DNA of 37,694 bases from NCBI GenBank assembly GCA_051382305.1, contig JBBCAV010000045.1:1-37694 (forward strand), in the 5' to 3' direction. This stretch comes from Bdellovibrionota bacterium FG-2. GTDB taxonomy: Bacteria > Bdellovibrionota > UBA1018. A program made the position numbers and the translations under genes. Within the stretch, counting starts at the first letter, position 1, and the number at the start of each line of letters is the position of its first letter. The notes below the pieces were generated by a model that saw only the letters and a list, made by a program, of their open reading frames with translations, was not told the DNA's origin and ran no database searches. This document shows positions 852 through 37,506 of the stretch, piece after piece.

Positions 852-1940
852 ATGGCGATAAATAGACGTGAAGGAAAAAATGGCCTGAGCTATCAGGTCA
901 AAATCAAAGGTTCAGACGGAAGTTGGGTAACAGAGACTTTTGACCGAAAAGCTGATGCCGACAAGAGAAAGGCTGAACTCAGGATTCAAAAAACAAGCGG
1001 AAGTGTTGTTTCCAATTGGAATCGTGGTTTAACGCTCGATGATTACTTTCCCGTATGGGACAGCGAAACAAGAGGTACGGGGGCTTCTCCGGGCTGGAGG
1101 GGCAGTCAAATCCAAATGTACCGGGACCACATCGGCCCTATCATTGGTGGGATGAAGCTTCAACAAATCACCCCCGCCAATATTTCCAAAGTAATTAGTG
1201 CTGCCTCTGAAAAAGGACTTGGCCCTTCTATGAGAAAGCACGTTTACGTTTTACTGCGAAAAATCTTTGGTGACGCTGTGGAGATGTTTCATGTGCTTCC
1301 CAAAAACCCAGTACTGCGAAAATTTCAACCCAAGCTTCCAAAAAAGGAGGCGAAATACCTTGAACCCGAAGACACGAAACAGCTTCTTCAATTAGTCCGA
1401 GGGCGACCTTATGAAGTAGCCGTGTGGCTAGGTGTATTGGCGGGACGAAGGATTGGAGAGATTCAATCGCTCAAGTGGGATGCAGTCGATTTGGACAAGG
1501 GTTTGATCTTTATCAGATCGACCTATGTGCGGAAGGAGAACCTATTTAGAACTTATCCCAAGGGCAGACGGTGGCAAACAATCCAAATGCCTCCTGAACT
1601 CTTGGAGCTGATGAAACGCGAAAAACTACTTTCCAAAAGTGAGTTTGTCGTAACCGCAGCGAATGGCGACTTCCTCCCCTACCACATCTATACCGTGGCT
1701 TTGAAACGCTACTGCCGCGAGGCGGGGGTTAAATCTCTTAGCAGTCATGGGTTGAGACATTCGTGTTCAGAAATCTACATGGCAAACGGGGCAAGCCGCG
1801 ATGACATGCGGATTCTTCTGAACCATTCAACAAGTACGGTCACGGATGGCTACGTTCACGATAAGGGCGAGCGGGTCGGGAGAGTGGCCCAAGTGATCCA
1901 GATGTTTCCCAAAAGTTTCCCAAATCTAAAAAACGGATAA
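852..1940 (+). CDS. Tyrosine recombinase/phage-type integrase with N-terminal arm-binding domain
   Basis: Catalytic R (GRRIGE), K (YPKG), HxxR (HGLRH), H (LNHS) and Y (TDGYVH) are all present. Start placed at ATG 852 after AAAGGGG, 2 bp after the xis stop. Confidence 0.95.
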   Translation: MAINRREGKNGLSYQVKIKGSDGSWVTETFDRKADADKRKAELRIQKTSGSVVSNWNRGLTLDDYFPVWDSETRGTGASPGWRGSQIQMYRDHIGPIIGGMKLQQITPANISKVISAASEKGLGPSMRKHVYVLLRKIFGDAVEMFHVLPKNPVLRKFQPKLPKKEAKYLEPEDTKQLLQLVRGRPYEVAVWLGVLAGRRIGEIQSLKWDAVDLDKGLIFIRSTYVRKENLFRTYPKGRRWQTIQMPPELLELMKREKLLSKSEFVVTAANGDFLPYHIYTVALKRYCREAGVKSLSSHGLRHSCSEIYMANGASRDDMRILLNHSTSTVTDGYVHDKGERVGRVAQVIQMFPKSFPNLKNG

Positions 1941-1987
1941 ATGGTAAGCTTCAGGACACTTTTAAAATCAGCAGCAAGTCGTTGGTT
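1904..1987. promoter_or_regulatory. Putative att-arm region: integrase arm-type repeats plus IHF-like site
   Basis: GTTTCCCAAA at 1904-1913 and 1915-1924. CAAGTCGTTGGTT at 1975-1987 has one mismatch to the IHF consensus YAANNNNTTGATW. Confidence 0.55.
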
Positions 1988-2001
1988 TTTTAGGGAATTT
2001 T

Positions 2002-2089
2002 TGGTGGCTCCGGAGAGAATCGAACTCTCACACCCTTACGGAATACACGATTTTGAGTCGTGCGCGTCTACCAATTCCGCCACAGAGCC
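2002..2089 (-). tRNA. tRNA-Leu (anticodon CAA) with encoded CCA; probable integration site
   Basis: Acceptor stem GGCTCTG/CGGAGCC-ACCA, D-loop GGAATTGGTAGAC, anticodon arm CACGA-CTCAAAA-TCGTG, long variable arm, T-loop GTTCGATTC. Confidence 0.97.
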
Positions 2090-2126
2090 ACTTTGAGGAA
2101 GGTTTAATTTGTTTAGCTTAAAGAGA

Positions 2127-3152
2127 TCAAAAAATCCACTCCCACTTCTTAAACTCGAACACTCCCGAGCGGGCCAACCGATACCTCCCCCCCATCGGCA
2201 AGGGGAACTTCTCTGGCCCGTGCCCCACAGGCAACCCCTGCGCTACTGGGGCCCCCAAATCCCGGCCCAGTTCTGAAAAAATATCTGATATCGTTGACTT
2301 AGGCTCAAGTTTTTGCCGAAGCGGCTGAAGTTCCGTGGGCTTCGGAGCTGTGACCATTCGCTCAAACCCTTGCGAACTAGGCGATCGAACAAGCACCGAT
2401 GCCACCGGGTCGTAGCAATTGGAGAAATTCCCTAAAACGATCGCCCGCGCTCCCTTGAGCACTCCTGAAAGCATGAGCTGGGTCACGATCCGATCCAGGC
2501 GATACAACGGCTCATCGGTATCCTCAAAAAACACGATCTTGCCACGCGCACGCGGTACATAAGGCGTCCCGATCAGTGTTGAAAAAACGGCTAAATTCCC
2601 ACCGATTAAAGGCGCTTCAATATCTGTTTTCGGCCGCGGCGTAAGCCAATTCAATTTTAACTTCGGCACACCCCAGGGTTGCGCAGGCACTTCGCCCCTA
2701 ATCCAACTCGCCAAAGAGGACCACTCGAGATCCCCAAGTAGCGCGAACTTACGCAATCCCGGCATCGGAGCATGCAGCACACTCCAACCCCACTTCGTCT
2801 GCACAAACTCAATCAATGCTGTGGCATCCGAAAATCCGACGAGGAGTTTCGCCGGGGGCTTACCTCGCTTTCGAGATTCGGCCGCAAGAATCGGCAACAA
2901 CCGCGCCGCACCATACCCTCCGCGTGCACACCAAAGAACATCCGACTTGAGGCTATAGGCTGCCGCTAAAAAAGCCTGGGCGCGATCGGCATCCGTGCCT
3001 GCAAAAAACCGAAACTCTTTTTTACATTGAGGGTGAACTTCGAAATCAAAACCCTGCGCCCCAAGACGCTGTAGGCCCAGCTCAAACTCGATTTGAGGAA
3101 CCACCGATGAGGGCGCAATAATCTGAATCCGAGGAACGCGCATTTTTCCCAT
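2127..3152 (-). CDS. LD-carboxypeptidase, peptidase family S66
   Basis: IIAPSS, ARGGYGA, GFSDAT (Ser), GGNL, FFED (Glu) and GHG (His) motifs. Confidence 0.92.
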   Translation of the reverse strand: MGKMRVPRIQIIAPSSVVPQIEFELGLQRLGAQGFDFEVHPQCKKEFRFFAGTDADRAQAFLAAAYSLKSDVLWCARGGYGAARLLPILAAESRKRGKPPAKLLVGFSDATALIEFVQTKWGWSVLHAPMPGLRKFALLGDLEWSSLASWIRGEVPAQPWGVPKLKLNWLTPRPKTDIEAPLIGGNLAVFSTLIGTPYVPRARGKIVFFEDTDEPLYRLDRIVTQLMLSGVLKGARAIVLGNFSNCYDPVASVLVRSPSSQGFERMVTAPKPTELQPLRQKLEPKSTISDIFSELGRDLGAPVAQGLPVGHGPEKFPLPMGGRYRLARSGVFEFKKWEWIF

Positions 3153-3155
3153 ACG

Positions 3156-3422
3156 CTAAAGAATGAGCACCAAGCTCCGAAGCCCCAAGACTGAACCAAA
3201 AATCACGGACCAGCAAAAGGTCAGACACAGAAGCAAGACCCCGATTCCCAGCCAAAAACCCACACGCTGAGAGTCTTTAGATCCCCAGCCCACAAATGCT
3301 TTGCCCAACACCGCTGACGTCAAAACCATCAACACAAACTCGATGGCGGCCGCCCCACTCAAACTCGCCCCAATGCTTGCCCCAGAACCTACCAAAAAAC
3401 CTGAAAGCCCTGCCAGCCCCAT
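3156..3422 (-). CDS. Small hypothetical membrane protein
   Basis: Hydrophobic 88-aa ORF that fills the gap between engB and the S66 gene with 1-3 bp spacers. Confidence 0.65.
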   Translation of the reverse strand: MGLAGLSGFLVGSGASIGASLSGAAAIEFVLMVLTSAVLGKAFVGWGSKDSQRVGFWLGIGVLLLCLTFCWSVIFGSVLGLRSLVLIL

Positions 3423-3423
3423 A

Positions 3424-4032
3424 TCAGACCCCCTCCTTAAGAACCTGCGTTAGTTCCTTGATGCCATCTCCAGTGACCGACGAAACCCAGTGCACCTGAG
3501 AGGGATCATAACCCATTTCAAGCACAATCTGGGAGGCTTCTTTTTTCCGCTTGGCGCGTTCCGACTGAGTCTTCAGCAAATCCGCTTTCGCAAATACAAT
3601 GATCACCGGCACGTTCTCTGATTGCATAAACTTCAAGGCATCTATGTCTTGTTCACTCGGCCCATGCCTGGCATCAAGCAAAAGCAAAGCGCGCTCCAAA
3701 AACTCATCCTTATCAAGGTAATCTGACAGAAAACCCGCCCAGCGTTCCCGCTCTTCTTTTGAAACTTTCGCAAAACCATACCCGGGAAGATCAACGAGAA
3801 TTTTCCCCGTGCCCTCCCAGGTGTAAAAATGCATCGCCCGGGTTTTGCCCGGCGTTTTACTCGTAAAAGCGATCTTGGCCCCCACAAGCCTGTTAATCAG
3901 CGAACTTTTGCCCGCGTTGGATCGCCCGACAAACGCAATTCGGGTACCCGTGTGCCCTTTAATGAACTTGCCCTTAATTGCGCCGTCAATGGATTCTGGC
4001 CCGGCAAGCGTGATGATAAATTTTCCAGCCAT
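3424..4032 (-). CDS. engB: Ribosome biogenesis GTP-binding protein EngB/YihA/YsxC
   Basis: GRSNAGKS, SKTPGKT, DLPGYG and KAD motifs. Start placed at ATG 4032 after GGTGG. Confidence 0.95.
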   Translation of the reverse strand: MAGKFIITLAGPESIDGAIKGKFIKGHTGTRIAFVGRSNAGKSSLINRLVGAKIAFTSKTPGKTRAMHFYTWEGTGKILVDLPGYGFAKVSKEERERWAGFLSDYLDKDEFLERALLLLDARHGPSEQDIDALKFMQSENVPVIIVFAKADLLKTQSERAKRKKEASQIVLEMGYDPSQVHWVSSVTGDGIKELTQVLKEGV

Positions 4033-20862: not shown

Positions 20863-21495
20863 GAGCGGAATCGCAGGGTTATAGCGGCGCAAACCCTGCC
20901 GCTCTGAGCGAACTCAAGACTTTGCCCAGAATTGCGGCATCGATTCCGCGCGCGACTCCAAAAGTCTCTAAGAAATTGGTGGTGAAATAATTTGCGAGCG
21001 CCCGAAACTCCCGCCCCCAGGTCACAAGCCTAGAATAAAGAAGCTTATCCCAAAAGCCTTCGTCCGTTTTCGGATCACGAAAAGCCTCGCCCTTTTTGGT
21101 GCCAGTAATCTGAAAAGCGATTTCGCCAGAAAGGCGTCTAAGAAAAGCGTGAAACTCCTGTTTGGCAATCGTGTATTGTTTTGTTTCAGTTTTCACGAGT
21201 AAGTGCAGGTGATTGCCAACGTTGACTTGGCGATAGACTTTGATGTGGTAGGTTCTTGCGCAGTTTTCAAGGACACGCTTCACCCGAGCTTGGTTCTTAT
21301 CCGTGAGAAAAGACCAGACGCCCTTAGCGTGCGATGACCTCAGAACAAGATGCATTGCATGTTTATGAGAGAAAGGACGCGCTTCTTTGCGTTTTCCTTT
21401 TCGGATTTCGCCGCCGTGGTCAATGCGAAGTTTTGGGAGAAAAGAAAGCTGTTTCACAGAAACTGACCCTAGCGCGATCGAATAGGCCAGGGCAA
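20863..21495 (-). mobile_element. Putative IS200-like/RAYT-like element bounded by hairpins
   Basis: Hairpin GAGCGG..GCAGGGTT/AACCCTGC-CGCTC (20863-20904) and imperfect hairpin CCCTAGC/GCCAGGG (21467-21492) flank the transposase. The RCC1 repeat pattern breaks at about 21495. Confidence 0.5.
20879..21457 (-). CDS. Y1 HUH transposase (IS200 TnpA/RAYT-like)
   Basis: MHLVLRS, HUH motif NVGNHLHLLV, FW...YSRLV, and catalytic Tyr helix ANYFTTN. GTG start at 21457. Confidence 0.8.
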   Translation of the reverse strand: MKQLSFLPKLRIDHGGEIRKGKRKEARPFSHKHAMHLVLRSSHAKGVWSFLTDKNQARVKRVLENCARTYHIKVYRQVNVGNHLHLLVKTETKQYTIAKQEFHAFLRRLSGEIAFQITGTKKGEAFRDPKTDEGFWDKLLYSRLVTWGREFRALANYFTTNFLETFGVARGIDAAILGKVLSSLRAAGFAPL

Positions 21496-22025
21496 GTGAC
21501 GCCTTTGAGATTTGCAGGCACCTCAGTCTGACCTGCTTGATCCGCGCCCCAACAGCGCACTCCTTCATCGTTAAGTGCACAAGTATAATCAGCGCCCGAC
21601 GAGATTTGAGTTACTCCTTGAAGCCCCAGAGGCACATCCAGAGCGTCGTCTAGGTTTCGGCCCCAGCACTGAACAGTCCCATTCTTTTTGAGGGCACAGG
21701 CGTGTGCTAAGCCGACTCCCACTTGAATGACATCTTCGAGATCATCGGGTACAAAATTAAGGCCATACTGATTAGAGCCCCAGCAGCGCACTTTCCCCGC
21801 ACTAATGGCACAAGTGTTGCCATAACCTCCTGCGATTTGATCCACAGTTTGGTTACTTGCGGGTATATCCAGCTGACCCAGTTTGTTGTCGCCCCAACAA
21901 AAGAGTTCTTGCGCATTCAGGAGGCAAGCGTGGTTCATCCCCAAAACGAGTTGAGAGTTTGGCGCAGCAATTGCGGCCTGAAAACTTCCCGTCACTATTA
22001 GAATTCCCAAAAGTCTTCTGAGCAT
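21420..22025 (-). CDS. Exported RCC1/BLIP-II repeat protein, probably 3'-truncated
   Basis: Signal peptide and four ~38-aa repeats (H/T-x-C...CWG.N..GQ..VP). The pattern stops at LKGVT and the tail overlaps the transposase start. Confidence 0.75.
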   Translation of the reverse strand: MLRRLLGILIVTGSFQAAIAAPNSQLVLGMNHACLLNAQELFCWGDNKLGQLDIPASNQTVDQIAGGYGNTCAISAGKVRCWGSNQYGLNFVPDDLEDVIQVGVGLAHACALKKNGTVQCWGRNLDDALDVPLGLQGVTQISSGADYTCALNDEGVRCWGADQAGQTEVPANLKGVTCPGLFDRARVSFCETAFFSPKTSH

Positions 22026-23039: not shown

Positions 23040-23468
23040 TTAAGCCGCAATCCCAAGCGCATCTTCAACTAGAGCCCTGCACTGTTTGGGATAAAAAGGC
23101 TTCTGCAAAAACCGCGGGACGACTTTTCCATTAATAAGTTTTCGAAACACATCCGGCTCCAAACCCGAAACCATCACAAAAGGCATTTTGGGAACTTCAT
23201 TCTGGCAATGCCGCCAAAGATCCAAACCGTTACTCTCTCCGAGTAGAAAATAATCAGCAATGACCAGCGAAAACGCACCCTCAGCTAGCGCGACTCGAGC
23301 CTCATCCACACTCACAGCCCAGTAGACTTTTATAGTCGCATCCATCGATTGGAGAATCCGAATCAAAATCGGTTTCATAAAAAGATCATCTTCAACGACG
23401 AGAACTGACAACCCCTTGGTTCTTCCCGCCGCCGCCAGGTAAAAAGTCCATAAACTTGTATCCAACAT
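23040..23468 (-). CDS. Single-domain response regulator (REC)
   Basis: VLVVEDD, phospho-acceptor in VIADY, VMVSG and FLQKP motifs; RBS AAGGAGG. Confidence 0.9.
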   Translation of the reverse strand: MLDTSLWTFYLAAAGRTKGLSVLVVEDDLFMKPILIRILQSMDATIKVYWAVSVDEARVALAEGAFSLVIADYFLLGESNGLDLWRHCQNEVPKMPFVMVSGLEPDVFRKLINGKVVPRFLQKPFYPKQCRALVEDALGIAA

Positions 23469-23537: not shown

Positions 23538-24272
23538 TCAAAGAATCTCCTTCAATTGTCGATCCACCTCAGCCGCCCAGTTTTTATTGGCTTTGGGGCT
23601 GGCGGGCGAAGGATGCAAAATCCTGTGGATCCTGACGTGACTAAGATCTTTACAGCCCTCAAGCGCTTCATGGGCCCTCGTTTCAGCAAAGGCACCGACG
23701 CCGATCAAAACTTCGGCATTCATCGCGCGAACCATTTCAACCAAAGCTTCATCGCAAACGCTGAATAAGGCCTGCTGCTCGGCTTTGGGTAAATGATCAG
23801 GAGTAAAGTTTTTGCCACTAGCTTCCATGAAGACAAGCGGGCAATAATTGGCGACAAAAAATTCGGAAAAAAATTTCTCAGGGGTGTGAAATTTATCTTT
23901 GGCCCAACCCCAGAGTCTTTTGCCACTCACCTCACTCCGAGTGCAGGCAAATCCCTCAACAGGCCGCTGCGGATGCTCTTTAGAGGGCTTGCCCACAGGG
24001 GCTTCAATCCCTAGCCAATCACGAACCATGGAGATCTCGCCAAAGGGAATTCCGGTTTGGGCCATCCCAAAAGGGCCAGGATTCATGCCAAGCAGAATCA
24101 CTCTCCGCGGGGAGCTTCCGAAGCGCGCGACATATTCGTCCCAGGGCTTGCGGGCATATTCGAGAGGATTATAAACGAATGCCACGGGAGCCTTGAAGCG
24201 AAGCGGTTTAAGCTTTCGCAGCCATTCATCCGTGGCACTCGTTAAAGCATCAGATACTTTTTTAGCGATCAC
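23538..24272 (-). CDS. SMUG1-like (family 3) uracil-DNA glycosylase
   Basis: YNPLEYA, GMNPGPFGMAQTGIPFG, SEVSG, NYCPL and HPSPASP motifs. Confidence 0.93.
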   Translation of the reverse strand: MIAKKVSDALTSATDEWLRKLKPLRFKAPVAFVYNPLEYARKPWDEYVARFGSSPRRVILLGMNPGPFGMAQTGIPFGEISMVRDWLGIEAPVGKPSKEHPQRPVEGFACTRSEVSGKRLWGWAKDKFHTPEKFFSEFFVANYCPLVFMEASGKNFTPDHLPKAEQQALFSVCDEALVEMVRAMNAEVLIGVGAFAETRAHEALEGCKDLSHVRIHRILHPSPASPKANKNWAAEVDRQLKEIL

Positions 24273-28546: not shown

Positions 28547-28975
28547 TCAAATTGAAAATGCTGAGTGAGAAGGAAGATTGGAAATTCCAGCCGGCGCCAT
28601 CCGAGCATCCAAGGGAACCGAACCATCCGGATTTTGCATATAGATCGCAGGAGCATCGACTTTTGTCACCACCAAAACCATGTTATTGAATACTGAAAAT
28701 CCTAAGCGAGGCAATGCGCGAGCCGGAATCACAACCTGACCACTCGAATCAATGCTCACACGGATGGGCGCCGCTTGAATTTGTCTCACCGACAGACTTC
28801 GTCCTTCGACACCCAAAGTCGCCTGACGACCAGAAACATAAAATACGTTCAACGCCAAGCCTGAGAGATGCCTGAGATTCACGATTCGCACCTCGTTGAC
28901 GATAGGCTCGGCAGCCATCGCGCCCAAGGAAACAATTAAAAACAGTGAGACAAGAAATAAAATTCGCTTTTTCAT
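28547..28975 (-). CDS. Hypothetical exported protein; possibly frameshifted with true end at 28447
   Basis: Signal peptide MKKRILF...AMA; ATGA-coupled to the upstream gene; beta-rich. Confidence 0.7.
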   Translation of the reverse strand: MKKRILFLVSLFLIVSLGAMAAEPIVNEVRIVNLRHLSGLALNVFYVSGRQATLGVEGRSLSVRQIQAAPIRVSIDSSGQVVIPARALPRLGFSVFNNMVLVVTKVDAPAIYMQNPDGSVPLDARMAPAGISNLPSHSAFSI

Positions 28976-30735
28976 TGCTTCTGACCTCCGTACTCTAAAT
29001 AGAGCACAATATAACCACTCGAATCCGACTGCAGACTCTGAAGGGAAAGGGGAATCCCTGCAACCTCAGAAGGGATTGCAACGTCTTTTGCAAGCGCCAT
29101 GGGATTAGACTTATAACCCACGTTGGCCCGGCGAATCTTCTTCTTCACAGATTTCTCAATCATCGAATGAAGGAAACCAAGTTTCACGGACTCGCGCTTC
29201 ACCTTCACCGTGGACTCATCAATGCGATCGACCAACAAGCTGATGCGACTCGATGCGCCCTTCACCCCCGGCGTCACCACAAGTCTTACATTCATATCAA
29301 AGCTAAAAAGCAGCGGGTTTTCGACAAAGAATTTTTCAATCCCTTGGGGCTTCTTTGCAACTTGAAGGCGCAAAATAGCGCGGTCTTTTGCAAGTGCACC
29401 CGTCAATACGAGTTCAGGGGCCACCGTCATGGCAAGCGATTCACCTGCGTCACCATAAGGGACCTTCTCAAAATAGCCTCGCGCAAAACTGAGACCTAGA
29501 ATCTGGTTAACCAAATCCTGATTCAGCGAAAGAGCCAAATCATAATCCGCAGGATGCGCGCCACTAAAAGTGGGCATCGAACGCATGCTATCTTCTGCGC
29601 AGCTCCAATCTGTACCCAAGGCCTCCACCGAGGACTTAGCAGGATCTCGAACAGAAGCGGCCAAGCCCAAAAACAGCATATGAGACTCTTGCCTAAGTTC
29701 TTGAGGGGACATCCACCATTTAAATTTTGTTTGAAAGGCGGCGCCCATCACAGGTGCACCCGGGGCGGCCATTTCGTTGCCTTCCACAAGATTCTGAGGA
29801 AGGTAAGCCTGAATCAAATTATTCAGCTTTTGCGGAAGTTGCTCTTCCGCAAAACGATCCAAAAGAACCTGCAACATCTCTAGATAACGATCCTTAAGCT
29901 TAAGCAATTCCCGCTCAAGAGCAGCCTGATTTAGAGCAATGGGGTGGCCATCGATCAAAACCTCAACTCGCGGCAAAACAAGCGGTCGATCAAATCCCAT
30001 CTTTAGATCCACCTGATCCAAGGAGGTGTGAATGCCCAGAATATTGAACTCCACATTGCCCGTTTCCTTGATTCGCACGCCAATCGGGATTTGAATTTCA
30101 AGCGGTTTACTCTCCCCGGAGAGTTCCGTAAAAAGGCCACGCACTCCAAACGTCTTCAAGGAAGAGTTATTGAGATTCTTCCCCATCACACTCGCCGCAG
30201 AAAGCCTGAGACTTGGAATCTGAGCTTCCAACACAAAAACCGCAGAATTAGCGCCGGTGAATTCTCTCACGGGAGACGTCTGTAAGCTAAACCCCAAACG
30301 ATCAATTTGGGCGGAGTAACGAATATCCTTCACCTCCACTCGAATCAGCGGATCGTTAAAAGAAAATCCCAGCAACCAAGATTTGAGAATCGATCGAATC
30401 TTACCCAAGGTGCCCGAAAACTTTTGGAAGTGAATCGGTAGTTGATCCAATTTGAGCGGCTTCTCCGCATTAAGCACAAACGAATCAATCTGGCCTTCGC
30501 TGAGCGAAATACCATTGGCGAACAAAACATCAGCAAAATGCTCGACAAAATATTTCTGCCCTCGCTCGGTCAATCCCAAACCCACGGCACGCCCGATGCC
30601 GCAGGCCGGTTTTTCTTTTGCCTGAACACCTGCCAGAGCAACACCGGAGGTCACCACAGCCAGGCCAAGAGCCATCACGCCAATCCGTAAAATTTTCATC
30701 GTCATTCTTATCGTCATTTTCGTGGTCATTCTCAT
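28972..30735 (-). CDS. Exported LBP/BPI (TULIP)-like protein, paralogue 2
   Basis: Signal peptide. VGLGLTERGQKY and DLALSLNQDLVNQILGLSFARGYF resemble BPI N- and C-domain patterns. Collinear with the upstream paralogue. The ORF is secure but the fold call is inference. Confidence 0.6.
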   Translation of the reverse strand: MRMTTKMTIRMTMKILRIGVMALGLAVVTSGVALAGVQAKEKPACGIGRAVGLGLTERGQKYFVEHFADVLFANGISLSEGQIDSFVLNAEKPLKLDQLPIHFQKFSGTLGKIRSILKSWLLGFSFNDPLIRVEVKDIRYSAQIDRLGFSLQTSPVREFTGANSAVFVLEAQIPSLRLSAASVMGKNLNNSSLKTFGVRGLFTELSGESKPLEIQIPIGVRIKETGNVEFNILGIHTSLDQVDLKMGFDRPLVLPRVEVLIDGHPIALNQAALERELLKLKDRYLEMLQVLLDRFAEEQLPQKLNNLIQAYLPQNLVEGNEMAAPGAPVMGAAFQTKFKWWMSPQELRQESHMLFLGLAASVRDPAKSSVEALGTDWSCAEDSMRSMPTFSGAHPADYDLALSLNQDLVNQILGLSFARGYFEKVPYGDAGESLAMTVAPELVLTGALAKDRAILRLQVAKKPQGIEKFFVENPLLFSFDMNVRLVVTPGVKGASSRISLLVDRIDESTVKVKRESVKLGFLHSMIEKSVKKKIRRANVGYKSNPMALAKDVAIPSEVAGIPLSLQSLQSDSSGYIVLYLEYGGQKQ

Positions 30736-32414
30736 GGCCTCATAAAGTTAATGTAGGTTACAATGAAACCCGCTGGATCAATCTGCACATCCTGGACTTC
30801 TAGCGCCATTCCCATGAGTTGAGAAGGAATCGGAAGCTTATCCGCGAGCGTAAGCCCTTTTTTCACGTGAAACTTGAGATTCTCTTTTTTCAAAACCTTC
30901 AACGCTTCGTGATGCACAATCTCTCGGGTCGTTTGATCAAAAAAGCCATTTTTCCTGATATAACGATCTTCAATGCTAATGAAGTTTTCGTTCAGCACTT
31001 CCATATTCAACTGCACGACCCCATCCTCGATTAGGACCCTCGTTTTCCCTTCAACAGCAACCTGAAATGGATCCAAAAGCACAAGACTTTCGGTGACACT
31101 AGGAGTTCGGATGAGACGAAGCTGCAAATCCATGAACTTGAGTCTGCCGTCATCCGCTACAAATCGCGGGGACTCAGCAAAATGCAGATAGGTTCCATCA
31201 CTATTGAGCATATTTTCAAAGTTTCCCCGATCAAAGCCCATTTGAACTAAGCGATTGACATACTTAAGACTAATAGCCAAAGCAAAGTCATATTGACCAG
31301 GATCATGAGACAAGTAGGGTCTACGCTCTGCTGGATTAAAACCATAATAGGCGCGACTCGCCTCTGGATCTTCAAGCTTTCCGACAAAAGAAAGATCCAC
31401 AAGTCCGTCTCGCATATTCACATCCTGGGGCCGCATGGAGTATTTGAGTTTAGCGTTGCGCGCTCCTTTAGGTTCTCCCGGAGCCTTCATTGCACCACTA
31501 AATTCAAACCCTTTTTTCACCGCCTGATTGAGCACGAGATTCAATTGCCCGGGGAGCTTCTTTTGCGCAAACTCATCAAAGTAGCGCACGAGCGCCTCCA
31601 TCATCTGAGGCTGTTTAGATTCGATGAGTTTACGGACTTTATCGTGAGAAAGCGTTGAAACTTGATCGCCAATTCTGACTTGAAGTTTCGGCATCACGAG
31701 CGGCGCCTCAAAACCAGAGGCCAAACGCACTTGAGCGAGATTGGTGATCACTTTTAGAACTTCAATCTTAAAAGTTCCAGACTCCTTGACCGAGATCTTC
31801 ACGGGGATTTCTAAAGTGAGCGGACCACTTGCCGGGTCCAAGCCCAGCCAGACGAAGTTCGCGCCAAACACACCCAAAATTGAATTATTCACATCTTTCG
31901 CTCGAAGGCGCGAAATTTTAAATTTAAAATTTGGGATCTTGGCTTTCAAGCGCATGAAAACAGTATTTTCGAGACAAGCATTCTCCATGTCGTAATCGAC
32001 ATCGATATCAAAATCCTCAAGCCCAACCTGATAACGAATTCCTTCAGCCTCAACCAAAGGTTGGGGATCGTTTAACCGAAATCCCACCAGCCATTTCCTG
32101 ATTGTCTTTCTCACTTCCCTGACCGTTTTTCCGAAGCGCTCGTAGCCGGGAGGAAGTTTTGCAAGTTCAATAGGTTTATCTTCGCGATACTGAAAATCGG
32201 GCAAATCGCGTTCGAGCAAATTCAAATCTTTGTTAGAAAGCATTTGGACGATTTGCGCCTGTACGGCGGCCTGCCCTTTTCGCGAAAGCGACACCACCAC
32301 CGAATCTTTCAGGTTAAAGCCATCATCAGCTATCGCAGCCCACGAGACTGCTGTCGTTAACCCTAGAAGCGCACCTACTAAAATCATTCTCATGCTGCGA
32401 AACCTCCAGCGCAT
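30732..32414 (-). CDS. Exported LBP/BPI (TULIP)-like protein, paralogue 1
   Basis: Signal peptide; VVSLSRKGQ and DFALAISLKYVNRLVQMGFDRGNF. Shares WLxGFxxNDP, MxAPGxP and the terminal D..G.IV.Y with paralogue 2. Confidence 0.6.
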   Translation of the reverse strand: MRWRFRSMRMILVGALLGLTTAVSWAAIADDGFNLKDSVVVSLSRKGQAAVQAQIVQMLSNKDLNLLERDLPDFQYREDKPIELAKLPPGYERFGKTVREVRKTIRKWLVGFRLNDPQPLVEAEGIRYQVGLEDFDIDVDYDMENACLENTVFMRLKAKIPNFKFKISRLRAKDVNNSILGVFGANFVWLGLDPASGPLTLEIPVKISVKESGTFKIEVLKVITNLAQVRLASGFEAPLVMPKLQVRIGDQVSTLSHDKVRKLIESKQPQMMEALVRYFDEFAQKKLPGQLNLVLNQAVKKGFEFSGAMKAPGEPKGARNAKLKYSMRPQDVNMRDGLVDLSFVGKLEDPEASRAYYGFNPAERRPYLSHDPGQYDFALAISLKYVNRLVQMGFDRGNFENMLNSDGTYLHFAESPRFVADDGRLKFMDLQLRLIRTPSVTESLVLLDPFQVAVEGKTRVLIEDGVVQLNMEVLNENFISIEDRYIRKNGFFDQTTREIVHHEALKVLKKENLKFHVKKGLTLADKLPIPSQLMGMALEVQDVQIDPAGFIVTYINFMRP

Positions 32415-32679
32415 ATTGATCTGCGCAGGGAAGTTTTACACTAGTTGATTAAATTGGTCAACTCTTTAATGATATAACGCCATCAAAACCTGTTAAATAT
32501 ACAATATCAAAAGAGTTAATTCAAAATCAATTCAATCCAACAATCCCATGCCTGGATCGAATCCTCCCAAAACAATGCCCGAAGCCTCACTCTCCCCGCA
32601 AAACGCATTGCCATCACTCAAAGTTGCTGCCAAAATCTTTGAGTGCCTCGGGCAATACCCCCGAAAGGAAAACTCGCTT

Positions 32680-34824
32680 ATGAAAAATCTCACAATCCCG
32701 ACCGTGTTGATCACCGCCATGGGCTTTGGCGCTTGTACTCAAAACTCCGTCAAACCTACCCCGACCGACACATTCGATAGCGACTCCAGTCGTGGGCCCG
32801 CCGCGGCCGCAAAAGAAAACCGCGGCTCGCCTGCCGAGTACGATCCAGGCCCCCCAAAAAACTCAGAGTGGCCAGACATTTTTGCGGAAACCCCCAACTA
32901 CCGCGCTTACGGCAAAGCGGTTTACAGAGCCGCCGCCGCGGCAGCGAAAATCAAAGACGATGGGCAAGAGAAATTCCGCTGGAAAGTGGGCCCTATGTGG
33001 TACCGGGGCCGCCTCGCCCCCAATAGCGTTAAAGTGTTTGTCATCGGTCAAGAAGGAGCGCAAGACGAGAACACCTCCAACCGAACCTTCACGGGCTCCA
33101 CCGGCACGAAGATGCAAAACTTCATCAACTACTTCGGAATTAATCAAAGCTACCTCTTCATGAATACCTTCATCTACACCATTACAGGACAATACGGAGA
33201 GAGAGCCGAACCCACAGATACGCCCGAAGTGAAAAAGGAAAAGGAAGTCCGCTCAAAAACCTTGTTTTGGCTTGCGCAAAATCCCGCTAGCGTGATTGTG
33301 CAACACCGTCACCGCATGTTTGATTATATGCTCAAACAAAACACCGGCACCCTCGCTCTGGTCATTGGCGTAGGAAGCGCTGGAAAAGACAGCCTTGCCA
33401 CTTGGATCAAGTCTCACGGCGGAAAATGCACCTCCGCCCAACTCAGCAGAACCTTCTGCGACGCAAGCGTCTTGGGTAAGGGCGTAATGGCCATCGGGGT
33501 CATGCACCCAGGTGCCGCAAGTGCACGAAACGGGGGAGCAGACGCCGCTGGCGGGCTTCGTGGCGAGTTCAACAAAAAGGCGCAGACCGTCGCCCAGTGG
33601 ATTTCGCAAGATCCGAACTGGCTTAAACCGGACTCCGGAATGCGCAACGATGTTTCGTACAACTATTTTTACAAAGACGCAGCCATTCCCTACCGTGACT
33701 TTGCCTTCGGAACCAACTGGCGAATGGGCAAAGACGGAACCACAACCAATCGCCGTGGGGCCGATGGAATTCAAATCTATTCCGACGGAGGCTGTTACAA
33801 CAACGTCGCCAGATTAGAAGATGGCAAATGCGACCGAAACCCTACAAGCCCGAAAACGCTTAAAGTACTCTATCAAGAACCTAAAGATCTCCCCTGCAGC
33901 TTTAAACTCAGCCCCCAAGATGTCCCTTACGAAAGTCCAAAAAGCACCGAAGGCAGACGCCTCTACGACGAGGGCCCCGGGGAATTTGCCGACGAACTCA
34001 TGGGCGTCGCAGGAGATCATTGGCCTGACTTTACCTCTTTAGGGGTCACTCAACACGCCTCATTTGGAACCGGCGCGATCTATCGCGGCAATCTTAAAAA
34101 CCCCAAGATCTTGGTTCTCGCCGACCAGGAGTCCAATGACGACCTTTTCTCCACGCGCGCCTACACCGGAACCGGAGGACAACAACTCCAAACGTTCCTG
34201 GGCGCTCTCGGCGCTAAAAACAACTATGCCATCATTCGCACGCTCCCCGTGGACACTTCGGACCTCACCGCAAACGAAGTCAAGGATGTTGCCTTTCAAC
34301 CCGACGTTGTTCGCGCTCGAAATCGGATTCTGGATGCAATCCTTAAACAAGGAACCACCGGACTCATTGTCACAATTGGGGACTCTGCAGCTGCAATCAT
34401 GGCCGCACAGCACTCAAAAATTCCGGTCATCGCTCTTGAACATCCCAGCTCAAAAACTCATATGAGCCAATGGCAAAAGGCCCTAGCAAGCATTGCCGCA
34501 TTAAAAATTGCCGGGATTAACGCCAAGGGCAAATACACGGGCCTTCTCACGGCCATCCCGAGAGAGGACCTCCCGGCTCACACAAGGTGGTGGATGGGAA
34601 CAAGCGGAACTCGCGCCTCCCGCGCCTACACCCTAGAAGGAAAGACGACAGTCTGGAACGGGGATTACTACAAATTTGATGCCCCGGCCTGGGTAAACTC
34701 GAAGAACTACCCCGCACCCGCGACCGACCTCAACGCGACCGAAAAACAATCTTTTGAGAGCTTTCGCACCAACACAATTGAAATCTTTTCGGAAAACCTG
34801 CAAGACCCGATCGAACAAAACTAG
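32680..34824 (+). CDS. Lipoprotein with two tandem uracil-DNA-glycosylase-superfamily domains
   Basis: Lipobox FGAC (Cys19) and RBS AAAGGA. Domain 1: YRGRL..VKVFVIGQE..DE...RTFTGSTG...HPG. Domain 2: YRGNL..KILVLADQE..DD...RAYTGTGG...HPS. Confidence 0.75.
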   Translation: MKNLTIPTVLITAMGFGACTQNSVKPTPTDTFDSDSSRGPAAAAKENRGSPAEYDPGPPKNSEWPDIFAETPNYRAYGKAVYRAAAAAAKIKDDGQEKFRWKVGPMWYRGRLAPNSVKVFVIGQEGAQDENTSNRTFTGSTGTKMQNFINYFGINQSYLFMNTFIYTITGQYGERAEPTDTPEVKKEKEVRSKTLFWLAQNPASVIVQHRHRMFDYMLKQNTGTLALVIGVGSAGKDSLATWIKSHGGKCTSAQLSRTFCDASVLGKGVMAIGVMHPGAASARNGGADAAGGLRGEFNKKAQTVAQWISQDPNWLKPDSGMRNDVSYNYFYKDAAIPYRDFAFGTNWRMGKDGTTTNRRGADGIQIYSDGGCYNNVARLEDGKCDRNPTSPKTLKVLYQEPKDLPCSFKLSPQDVPYESPKSTEGRRLYDEGPGEFADELMGVAGDHWPDFTSLGVTQHASFGTGAIYRGNLKNPKILVLADQESNDDLFSTRAYTGTGGQQLQTFLGALGAKNNYAIIRTLPVDTSDLTANEVKDVAFQPDVVRARNRILDAILKQGTTGLIVTIGDSAAAIMAAQHSKIPVIALEHPSSKTHMSQWQKALASIAALKIAGINAKGKYTGLLTAIPREDLPAHTRWWMGTSGTRASRAYTLEGKTTVWNGDYYKFDAPAWVNSKNYPAPATDLNATEKQSFESFRTNTIEIFSENLQDPIEQN

Positions 34825-34850: not shown

Positions 34851-35336
34851 ATGTCTCAACTTGACGTCAAGTTCTTCAAACCCTTTGTCGACGGCACTAT
34901 TCACACCCTCAAGATTCAATGTTCTCTTGAAGCGAAACATGACAAACCTTTTGTCAAAGGCCAGAAAGAACAACCCCCCTTTGAGATTGCAGGCGTCATA
35001 GGCCTCACCTCTCAAGCCTTCACGGGTTCGATCACGATTTGTTTTCCTGAAAAAGTCTATCTTACAATGATGAGCAACATGCTGGGGGAAACCTTCACGG
35101 CGATTACGAAGGACCTCCAAGATGGCGCCGCGGAACTCCTCAACATCATTTTCGGCCAGGCCAAGAGCGTTTTGAACCAACAAGGCTACACCATTCAAAA
35201 AGCAATCCCGACCGTGGTGCGTGGAACAAATCTCACGACCACGCAACTCGGCGGCGGCCCTGTGATCGTGCTCCCTTTCTTGACATCCGTGGGGGAGTTT
35301 CACATCGAAATTTGCACCGAAGCCGCGATGAAGTAA
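34851..35336 (+). CDS. cheX: Chemotaxis phosphatase CheX
   Basis: FFKPFVDG, IAGVIGLT, catalytic ExxN in DGAAELLNIIFG, and IPTVVRG. Confidence 0.92.
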   Translation: MSQLDVKFFKPFVDGTIHTLKIQCSLEAKHDKPFVKGQKEQPPFEIAGVIGLTSQAFTGSITICFPEKVYLTMMSNMLGETFTAITKDLQDGAAELLNIIFGQAKSVLNQQGYTIQKAIPTVVRGTNLTTTQLGGGPVIVLPFLTSVGEFHIEICTEAAMK

Positions 35337-36022: not shown

Positions 36023-37318
36023 CTATTTTGCTCTAAAGCGATTCACTTCTTCGGCAAGACCTCTTAGGGCTGAGTTCCGCTCGCGAGTTTTTGTCTGCGC
36101 AACAGTGAGCGGCGCGGTCGTCTGCGCCGGTTCCACAGGGGGAGAGTCAATTTGCATATGGCGATAGATCTTCGCAAGTTTGCTATCGATCCTCGAATCC
36201 TCCCCAATTCCAGCTAAGAAGGTCCGGGTCGAATTCGAATCTTTAAGCCAGCTTGCATAGGTCAGCAATTGCTCTACGTTTAGGCCGTCGGTTTTCGCGC
36301 TCCATTTAAAGAGCAACATCCCCACCTTTGTAAAAAACCCAGGAATCCCCAAAAAACCCTTATGGGTAATATTGAAAACCTTGGACAGGGTCATCGCGGC
36401 GAGAAAATTTGCCCGAGATTGCAGAAGATAGATTGCAAGCTTTTCACGCTTGAGAACCTCCCCACGCGCGCCCACTTCCCGTCGCTCCCCAAGCGCCTCT
36501 TCGATCAATGACAATATCGAAACCTCGGGCAGCCCCAAGCTCATCGCCAGGTTGCGCGCATTGGGGTTGACCTGCCTAAGTGCCACGACCAAAGCATTGA
36601 GATTCATATCCTTTTGCGCACTCGAACCGGGATTGGGTAGAAAGTCTTTGTCTGCATAATTCACGACGGTAAGGAGGAACTCCTTGAGACCTTCTTCGTA
36701 GAGCTGCTGACGCCGCTCTTGCGAGACCTCTTCTTTAACGAGTTGAAACTCCATCGCATCAAAATAACGTTCAGCTTGAGCGATTTTCCCTTCCATCTCT
36801 GGAGAACGCTCCATCGCCTGTATACATCCCTGCCGGGTCGCAATAGAAGACGTTTGCCGGTCATCCGTATAATGATCGTCCGTCACGTTCTCCACCTTGT
36901 CGATTTTCCCTGCAATGTGCTCCTCGGTCTTCGCCACTTCCTTAGTTACAGCCAGATCCTCTTTCGTCGTAGCGGCCACACCTGTAATCACTTCATCCGT
37001 ATGCTCGGCGTTCTCGGCGATCTTCTTAGATACGACGACAGTCTCCCTCGTCGAAACGGCAAGGTCTGTCATCGTTTCATCCATATGCTCCGACGTCCTC
37101 GCTACTTCTTTACTCGCAACCAACGTCTCTTTTGTCGTGCCGGCCATACTGTCAGTTGTCCTCGCCATGTCAGTGGTCGTCTTGGCCATTTCCGAAGTGG
37201 TCTTGCTCATGTCTTTCGTCGAATCATGCATCTCATCGAGATTGCTTTTCAATGAACAGGCATTCAAACAAAGGCTCACAATTGACGCCCCGCACGCTAA
37301 GTAGTTGATTTTTTTCAT
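36023..37318 (-). CDS. Hypothetical lipoprotein with long repetitive coiled-coil stalk and helical C-domain
   Basis: Lipobox LNAC, 7-aa repeats of the xMxxTTx type, then three 28-aa repeats. Confidence 0.82.
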   Translation of the reverse strand: MKKINYLACGASIVSLCLNACSLKSNLDEMHDSTKDMSKTTSEMAKTTTDMARTTDSMAGTTKETLVASKEVARTSEHMDETMTDLAVSTRETVVVSKKIAENAEHTDEVITGVAATTKEDLAVTKEVAKTEEHIAGKIDKVENVTDDHYTDDRQTSSIATRQGCIQAMERSPEMEGKIAQAERYFDAMEFQLVKEEVSQERRQQLYEEGLKEFLLTVVNYADKDFLPNPGSSAQKDMNLNALVVALRQVNPNARNLAMSLGLPEVSILSLIEEALGERREVGARGEVLKREKLAIYLLQSRANFLAAMTLSKVFNITHKGFLGIPGFFTKVGMLLFKWSAKTDGLNVEQLLTYASWLKDSNSTRTFLAGIGEDSRIDSKLAKIYRHMQIDSPPVEPAQTTAPLTVAQTKTRERNSALRGLAEEVNRFRAK

Positions 37319-37506
37319 TTTCGATTTCCTTTTTTCGTTCAAACCTCATAAACTCACTCCAACGCACCATGGCGCCGCAGCTAGAACCGAGAGGTAGCGC
37401 GGAACTGATTAACTCATTTGATGCATGGTGTCAAATTTTCTTTCTCCAAACAAGATTGTTTTGACTCATCGCGTTTTTCGTGCGATGAACAGGGAGCTAA
37501 TTCTTT

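Follow-up and report, generated by a model that had tools for sequence, protein, structure and literature searches.

Why should a protein made of two uracil-DNA glycosylase (UDG) folds carry an export signal? To our knowledge, all characterized enzymes of the UDG superfamily guard intracellular genomes. The question is raised by a gene in a stretch of 37,694 nucleotides from Bdellovibrionota bacterium FG-2 (contig JBBCAV010000045.1, positions 1 to 37,694; the whole stretch is called the window below). An earlier note on this DNA had described its product as an exported lipoprotein with two tandem UDG-like domains, and had inferred that it acts on external nucleic acid or nucleotides, or on a new substrate. 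We observed the UDG fold, conserved export signals, a conserved active-site pocket and a genomic coupling to a second, deaminase-like gene. From these observations we infer catalysis, substrate, order of reactions and physiological purpose. In our judgement there is about an even chance that the protein excises bases from DNA or oligonucleotides beyond the cytoplasm, working with an exported deaminase-like partner. The gene and the parts of its product are as follows.

32680-34824, + strand: double-UDG lipoprotein gene, 714 amino acids (aa); reading frame open from 32548
32680..32736, + strand: lipoprotein-type signal peptide, residues 1-19, with the lipobox F-G-A-C19
32737..32811, + strand: disordered tether between lipid anchor and folded part, residues 20-44, pLDDT (predicted local distance difference test) <50
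32812..33684, + strand: UDG-fold domain 1, residues ~45-335
33685..33954, + strand: beta-rich extension of domain 1 and inter-domain segment, residues 336-425
33955..34524, + strand: UDG-fold domain 2, degenerate, residues ~426-615
34525..34824, + strand: C-terminal hairpin, terminal helices and stop

Both domains were recovered by sequence as well as by structure. The Pfam family PF03167 (UDG) matched with 34 bits (cut-off 24.3) in two stretches, the best at residues 470-593. The two halves of the protein also aligned with each other (BLASTP of residues 1-430 against 431-714, E = 7e-11, over 108-235 and 468-572), which confirmed the internal duplication. An AlphaFold2 (AF2) model built from 85 homologues had a pLDDT of 91.1 and a predicted template modelling score (pTM) of 0.89, and only residues 1-4, 20-44 and 710-714 were disordered in it. 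A Foldseek search with this model gave 5gn2 as the top structure (E = 6.9e-12), with UdgX, family 4 and SMUG1 next. In VIA, 5gn2 was superposed on model residues 422-674 (Z 22.6, 238 aligned residues, root-mean-square deviation 2.4) and the family-4 UDG 4zbx on residues 61-311 (Z 14.3). The two UDG-fold domains of the earlier note thus both match solved UDGs.

The structure 5gn2 is that of BdiUng (Blr0248) from Bradyrhizobium diazoefficiens, which was the best structural match and also the sole solved relative by sequence (PDB 5GN2, 5GN3, 5GNW and 5GRK). The sequence match (E = 3.2e-14; 5.9e-23 with the family profile) spans residues 96-175 against 29-107 of Blr0248, from motif A to the strand-4 core. 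According to the published account of the enzyme (PMC5449639), two BdiUng chains form a homodimer through their C-terminal hairpins, and the two active sites lie on the same face; the enzyme excises uracil (U) and 5-hydroxymethyluracil (hmU). The 5gn2 chain 1-272, dimer-interface hairpin included, was aligned as far as model residue 674. The segment after domain 1 contains model strands 356-358 and 363-367 and carries the motif IPxRDFxxGTxWRMG, with P337, D340, G350, T354, N357 and R358 invariant; the region of the C-terminal hairpin (strands 646-653 and 656-667 in the AF2 secondary structure) bears the motif IPRxDLPxHTRWWMGTSG. Because a hairpin-bearing extension follows each domain, the protein looks like a pseudo-dimer of the BdiUng type made by covalent fusion, with a putative hairpin interface.

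The pocket was mapped by a HMMER alignment to BdiUng combined with the active-site list in the BdiUng paper (PMC5449639), and column counts were made in 72 sequences, 46 exported and 26 cytoplasmic. Residues Q56, D57, P58, A59 and E62 of BdiUng correspond to Q124, E125, G126, A127 and E130 of the window protein, and L69, G71, M92 and N94 to F137, G139, F160 and N162. These residues and H276 were invariant or nearly so, and no difference was found between exported and cytoplasmic forms. Motif A (GQEGAQDE) and the HPG of domain 1 were present in 72 of the 72 sequences. The catalytic Asp57 in the GQDPA of BdiUng is replaced by an invariant Glu125 and Pro58 by Gly126. The principal sites of the two domains are listed here, those of domain 2 according to the internal alignment.

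33046-33069, + strand: motif A, G123-E130, domain 1 pocket
33163-33165, + strand: N162, domain 1 pocket, with F160
33505-33513, + strand: H276-P-G, motif B of domain 1, following strand 270-274
34120-34143, + strand: A481-D482-Q483 in place of G-Q-E, domain 2
34237-34239, + strand: R520 in place of Asn (N162), domain 2

In domain 2, the conserved Asp/Glu, Asn and His are all missing, and most homologues have Ala or Ser where its 'HPS' has H588. UDG motifs A and B had been read in both halves; they are kept in domain 1 and lost in domain 2, and the protein does not have two equivalent active domains. Similarly, among the six motif pairs on which the duplication had been based, five are conserved across the family (YDPGP/YDEGP, YRGRL/YRGNL, IGQE/ADQE, RTFTGSTG/RAYTGTGG and AIPYRD/AIPRED), but HPG/HPS is only half real. 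Domain 2 retains an invariant set of its own (D482, Q483, D488, R493, R520 and P523). Therefore, it seems to be functional, but not as a canonical glycosylase.

Compared with BdiUng, the window protein has the same alpha/beta/alpha fold, C-terminal hairpin, Asn and His, and neither has an iron-sulfur (Fe-S) cluster. Motif A is GQDPAQHE in BdiUng and GQEGAQDE here, both with Ala at the specificity-widening position. However, BdiUng is a single 272-aa domain, cytoplasmic and homodimeric, whereas the window protein has two fused domains and a lipoprotein signal. It further differs in the Asp-to-Glu replacement, in Phe160 at the position of Met92, in the catalytic degeneration of the second copy and in its coupling to a deaminase-like partner.

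The ATG at 32680 is the supported start, and a typical n-h-c signal begins there. In L013, a relative with 81% identity, an in-frame stop is found six codons ahead of the corresponding Met. The longer frame also contains a promoter-like site (32608-32636), which is weak evidence. The N-terminus, MK-NLTIPTVLITAMGFGA-C19, has the charged region, the hydrophobic region and the Cys-ending lipobox of a lipoprotein (Sec/SPII) signal. The segment MKNLTIPTVLITAMGFGA-C19 matches a loose lipobox pattern, judged by eye and regular expression only, and the Phe at -3 is atypical. The lipoprotein signal proposed earlier was supported by the homologues: of 115 near-length homologues in the alignment, 79 have Cys in the column of Cys19 and most of the others have an AxA-type signal, and among the 120 near-length homologues listed, a lipobox or an AxA-type signal opens nearly all. 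The tether behind it is weakly conserved and varies in length. The computed isoelectric point is 8.8 for the mature protein and 9.4 for domain 1, both basic.

Is export a general property of the family? A scan of one genome per species gave 213 loci, the best 80 of which were kept; 6 truncated loci were dropped and 74 analyzed. A hydrophobic N-terminus, called by a hydropathy threshold, was found in 48 of the 74 loci, nearly all with Bdellovibrionota-type names. The remaining signal-bearing loci were labeled 'Deltaproteobacteria' (three), uncultured (two), 'Proteobacteria' (one) and 'Sulfitobacter' (one metagenome-assembled genome, MAG). In the last case (L031, Sulfitobacter sp., on a 2.0 Mb contig), both the double-UDG protein and its partner grouped tightly with those of Halobacteriovorax (L029), and the organism label of the record may be wrong. 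The other 26 loci have no signal. Their proteins are of ~600 aa and begin directly at M..YW..RG.PWEYDPGPP, and the groups named as their sources are Acidimicrobiia/Actinomycetota, Chloroflexota, Bacteroidota, Ignavibacteriales, Acidobacteriota, Gemmatimonadota, Campylobacterales, Woeseiaceae and Thiotrichales. For 17 of these loci, the open frame extends less than 30 codons ahead of the conserved RG..YDPG motif, which leaves no room for a signal. Thus, the signal is shared by most of the sampled homologues, but export is not the general state of the family, which has a cytoplasmic clade in many other phyla.

The exported and cytoplasmic forms also differ in their cysteines, which lie at the following positions.

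33427-33429 and 33457-33459, + strand: Cys250/Cys260 pair, domain 1
33793-33795 and 33829-33831, + strand: Cys372/Cys384 pair, segment 336-425

Cys250 occurs in 44 of 46 exported against 16 of 26 cytoplasmic forms and Cys260 in 46 of 46 against 14 of 26, with Ala at these positions in 8-10 of the 26 cytoplasmic forms; Cys372/Cys384 occur in 19 of 46 exported forms and in 0 of 26 cytoplasmic ones. The exported-only pairs look like disulfides. With the signal conserved and Cys pairs fixed only in signal-bearing forms, the export claimed in the earlier note was borne out, and the protein is probably exported and probably lipid-anchored, as judged from these patterns. A reading of the cysteines as the Fe-S ligands of a family 4 enzyme was ruled out by the column counts. 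The four-Cys 4Fe-4S motif of family 4 is absent, as only Cys250/Cys260 are conserved and Cys372/Cys384 are limited to a subset. Family 4 UDG and UdgX (4ZBX, 1UI0 and 6AIL) resemble both domains in fold (Z 12-14) and gave weak NCBIfam matches at residues 114-162, but their motif A is of another type.

In a FastTree phylogeny of 79 rows, the 26 cytoplasmic forms made up one clade (support 100) and 41 Bdellovibrionota forms another (support 95). Five signal-bearing 'Deltaproteobacteria/uncultured' rows stood beside the cytoplasmic clade, and exported paralogues stood outside. A single switch of compartment would explain these data. With the paralogues as outgroup, the cytoplasmic clade fell inside the signal-bearing lineages, which would make export ancestral; this direction depends on an uncertain root, and one of the paralogue branches is very long. 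Within the cytoplasmic clade, different phyla are mingled on short branches, a pattern that suggests horizontal spread or, in places, errors of MAG binning.

The paralogues form an exported double-UDG family of the same phylum (L096-L102, in genomes G116, G029, G024, G081, G165, G041 and G281). Their open frames of 820-940 aa contain both domains and signal peptides, and their motif A (GQDG/GQDA-THIAEAA) retains the canonical Asp. In G024, a partner-type amidohydrolase lies 1.8 kb from the paralogue.

A conserved neighbor suggests what the protein works with. Neighboring open reading frames (ORFs) were clustered across 75 loci, and one conserved neighbor was found: an amidohydrolase (PF01979) in 50 of the 75 loci, 27 of exported and 23 of cytoplasmic type. 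A DEAD helicase, an alpha/beta hydrolase, a HhH-GPD protein and a poly(A) polymerase were also seen as neighbors, in only 7-12 closely related exported-type loci, and were set aside as kin synteny. The copy of the partner in this genome is as follows.

Contig C115 (L093), 1480-3618, - strand: amidohydrolase partner, 712 aa, AxA-type signal; unlinked to the window gene

The partner was matched in part by NCBIfam models of guanine, 8-oxoguanine and 5'-deoxyadenosine deaminases and of TRZ/ATZ hydrolases, and no match reached its curated cut-off. Its AF2 model had a pLDDT of 92.9, and the structural neighbors were AtzA, TrzN and adenosine, isocytosine and guanine deaminases. It shares a TIM-barrel fold and an HxH / HxxE / H / D site with the COG0402 set (guanine, isocytosine, 8-oxoguanine and adenosine/methylthioadenosine (MTA) deaminases, AtzA and TrzN), and none of H99, H101, H393, E396, H425 and D476 varies among 23 exported and 22 cytoplasmic forms. 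Unlike that set, it is ~700 aa long and has a helical insertion of ~200 aa, a C-terminal extension, a signal peptide and two Cys pairs.

The compartment of the partner follows that of the double-UDG protein. By the same hydropathy threshold, a hydrophobic N-terminus was called for the partner in 24 of 27 exported-type loci (the other three are a fragment, a split gene and one just below the threshold), but in only 1 of 23 cytoplasmic-type loci, where the gene is 2.1 kb distant. Among the 120 partner homologues listed, 102 exceed this threshold. Cys147/Cys174 are present in 19 of 23 exported and 0 of 22 cytoplasmic partners; the corresponding counts for Cys606 and Cys664 are 13 and 16 of 23 against 0 of 22. 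In the cytoplasmic lineages, the partner gene lies immediately downstream of the double-UDG gene and often overlaps it. An S41 (CPAF/Ctp-like) serine peptidase is fused to the partner or adjoins it in this clade: nine loci (L060, L065, L068-L070, L075, L077, L079 and L080) have an amidohydrolase-S41 fusion of 1100-1200 aa, and six (L064, L067, L071, L081, L085 and L089) a separate, adjacent peptidase gene.

The two genes also occur together across the phylum. Among 301 sampled genomes, the protein was matched in 57 at E <=1e-5 and in 29 at E <=1e-60; the latter threshold for orthologues was set after a clear score gap was seen. At E <=1e-20, the partner was found in 33 genomes, comprising 29 of the 29 that bear an orthologue and 4 of the 272 others. 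Among these four, one has an intermediate double-UDG gene, two have paralogous ones and one has none. Orthologue and partner lie within 10 kb of each other in 22 of the 29 genomes. They are unlinked in this genome, in its genus-mate and in three others, and on different contigs in two more. Since kin are not independent, this co-occurrence is descriptive only.

The family is rare. A profile search of 1.84 billion cluster representatives gave 637 proteins at E <=1e-3, 438 at E <=1e-10 and 200 at E <=1e-30. A word-based search for shorter homologues, which would miss distant single-domain BdiUng-like proteins, gave 80 matches that were mostly fragment-like, and no natural split was seen. Six long profile matches were scanned for domain fusions. 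In P0357, a lipoprotein signal is followed by four helix-hairpin-helix (HhH) repeats (HHH_3, PF12836) and the double-UDG unit. We take PF12836 to be the ComEA-type HhH. In P0352 and P0355, the signal and the double-UDG unit are followed by lamin-tail domains; the source of P0355 is named as a Myxococcales MAG. A lamin-tail domain is present in the extracellular nuclease ExeM (PMC6085458) and in a nuclease of DNA-foraging bacteria; ComEA is described as an HhH periplasmic DNA receptor (PMC3879209). Both ExeM and ComEA are extracytoplasmic, like the predicted window protein, and their accessory domains are those fused to its relatives. However, they cut phosphodiester bonds or only bind DNA and have neither a UDG fold nor base removal, and the window protein itself has neither a lamin-tail nor an HhH domain. 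Together with the exported deaminase-type partner and the basic charge of the protein, these fusions lent indirect support to the suggested action on external nucleic acid.

We propose the following course for base excision outside the cytoplasm. The mature protein would be held there by its lipid anchor. Domain 1, with Gln124, a water-activating Glu125, Phe160, Asn162 and His276, would flip out and cleave a base, probably a uracil-, 5-substituted-uracil- or xanthine-like one, in single-stranded DNA or oligonucleotides. Domain 2 may serve as the structural, DNA-holding half of the pseudo-dimer. The exported COG0402-type partner might make oxo-bases for domain 1 or might deaminate the released bases. 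The pair could thus process prey-derived or environmental DNA, for salvage of bases and nitrogen or for destruction of the DNA.

Several points weigh against this proposal. The water-activating Asp of BdiUng is Glu here, as read from the alignment, and the equivalence of its His168 with His276 was drawn from topology (strand 270-274 followed by HPG) rather than from the alignment. Signal peptides were called by a heuristic hydropathy threshold, not by SignalP. The window gene and the partner are unlinked in this genome. As 244 of the 301 sampled genomes of the phylum had no match to the protein, this is not a core predatory function. The cytoplasmic clade with its S41 peptidase is unaccounted for by DNA foraging and could hint at a substrate other than DNA. 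A nutritional gain from removing deaminated bases is obvious only if the partner deaminates polymers, and we know of no amidohydrolase-fold enzyme that deaminates bases in polymers. A stronger version, in which extracellular or prey DNA is taken apart one base at a time, the partner turning amino bases within DNA or oligonucleotides into oxo bases and the lipid-anchored pseudo-dimeric UDG then excising them, seemed to us doubtful. If it were true, ammonia and free bases would be released along with abasic DNA that falls apart, and each enzyme would be the first of its kind: a DNA glycosylase outside the cytoplasm and a polynucleotide deaminase with an amidohydrolase fold.

The alternative that survives best is that the module acts on a small nucleobase-containing molecule and not on DNA, which we regard as possible, at clearly lower probability than excision from DNA. 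The UDG-fold pocket would then be an N-glycosidase or a binding site, and the amidohydrolase a ring deaminase; the molecule might be a nucleoside (free or modified), a free nucleotide, a peptidyl-nucleoside or a pterin- or triazine-like compound. Every solved neighbor of the partner uses small heteroaromatic substrates, the S41 peptidase of the cytoplasmic lineages suggests a substrate with a peptide part, and the two-gene unit, patchy and horizontally spread, is like a small catabolic operon. However, every characterized UDG-fold enzyme that we know of acts on polynucleotides. Domain 1 is basic, exported relatives have HhH and lamin-tail domains typical of DNA-handling exoproteins, and BdiUng requires at least pNUNN (PMC5449639).

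It is unlikely that the protein is a non-catalytic DNA receptor at the surface or in the periplasm, for uptake or tethering of prey DNA. Such a role would agree with the Glu in place of the motif A Asp, with the clear degeneration of domain 2 and with the relative fused to ComEA-like HhH repeats, and UdgX shows that the UDG fold can serve DNA binding. On the other hand, the full pocket (Gln, Glu, Phe, Asn and His) is conserved in exported and cytoplasmic clades alike, and tight coupling to a deaminase with an intact site is more typical of a catalytic pathway.

We consider a role in defense or quality control, in which uracil or hmU would be excised from phage or transforming DNA crossing the periplasm, to be improbable. 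The bases excised by BdiUng, the predicted export and the patchy distribution would fit it, but PADLOC gave 0 families for the window protein, a cytoplasmic homologue and both partner types, no defense-island neighbors were seen, phage DNA does not usually lie exposed in the periplasm during injection, and the cytoplasmic clade has the same pocket. Least probable of all, and barely credible to us, is a cytoplasmic protein whose hydrophobic N-terminus is an annotation artefact or whose true start follows the lipobox: the signal prediction is heuristic, but the only Met between residue 2 and the conserved fold is Met14, within the hydrophobic core, and across 48 loci the signals vary in sequence while remaining constant in character, with Cys pairs fixed only in the signal-bearing forms of both the protein and its partner.

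The remaining features of the window, whose G+C is ~0.50 all along, are listed below.

34851-35336: cheX, 26-nt gap downstream of the double-UDG gene
23538-24272, - strand: SMUG1-type cytoplasmic UDG, ~8.4 kb away
23040-23468: receiver-domain protein adjoining the SMUG1 gene
28972-30735 and 30732-32414, - strand: two paralogous proteins with hydrophobic N-termini (exported), 587 and 560 aa, no Pfam match
36023-37342, - strand: predicted lipoprotein, 439 aa, with a Thr/Glu/Ala-rich repetitive N-terminal half
20879-21580 and 21420-22025, - strand: ORF with a sub-threshold IS200-like Y1 transposase match overlapping an RCC1-repeat protein ORF

The earlier note was correct that cheX directly follows the gene, and no terminator-like site was seen between the two. 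It had taken this as a hint of a sensory link. When five neighbors in the window were searched by tblastn against 101 stored loci, they were found only in L002 and L013, a same-genus relative. As cheX adjoins the gene there and in none of the other stored loci, we dropped the sensory link. The cytoplasmic SMUG1 placed about 8 kb away was also verified (Geobacter SMUG1, PDB 5h93, E = 4.7e-87). The paralogous pair lies upstream of the double-UDG gene and divergent from it, and is kept in the same-genus relative. The only match of the 439-aa lipoprotein was a weak, tape-measure-like Pfam family below the cut-off, and the overlapping ORFs at 20879-22025 may be a mobile-element remnant. Other neighbors in the window are a chalcone-isomerase-like protein and a PLD-type enzyme. 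For the double-UDG protein, the literature searched, apart from the supplementary homologue table S3 of the BdiUng paper, held no description of this architecture, location or coupling.

The exported double-UDG protein and its co-travelling exported deaminase-like partner point to a system, so far undescribed, that processes bases in extracytoplasmic DNA. Family members occur in cultured strains, for example those behind L054 and L057, and the proposal is therefore testable. The exported and cytoplasmic clades, with their identical pocket, provide a natural experiment on moving a two-enzyme pathway across a membrane. A conserved exported form would mean that base-excision chemistry has been recruited to DNA outside the cytoplasm, possibly for foraging, predation or the turnover of extracellular DNA.

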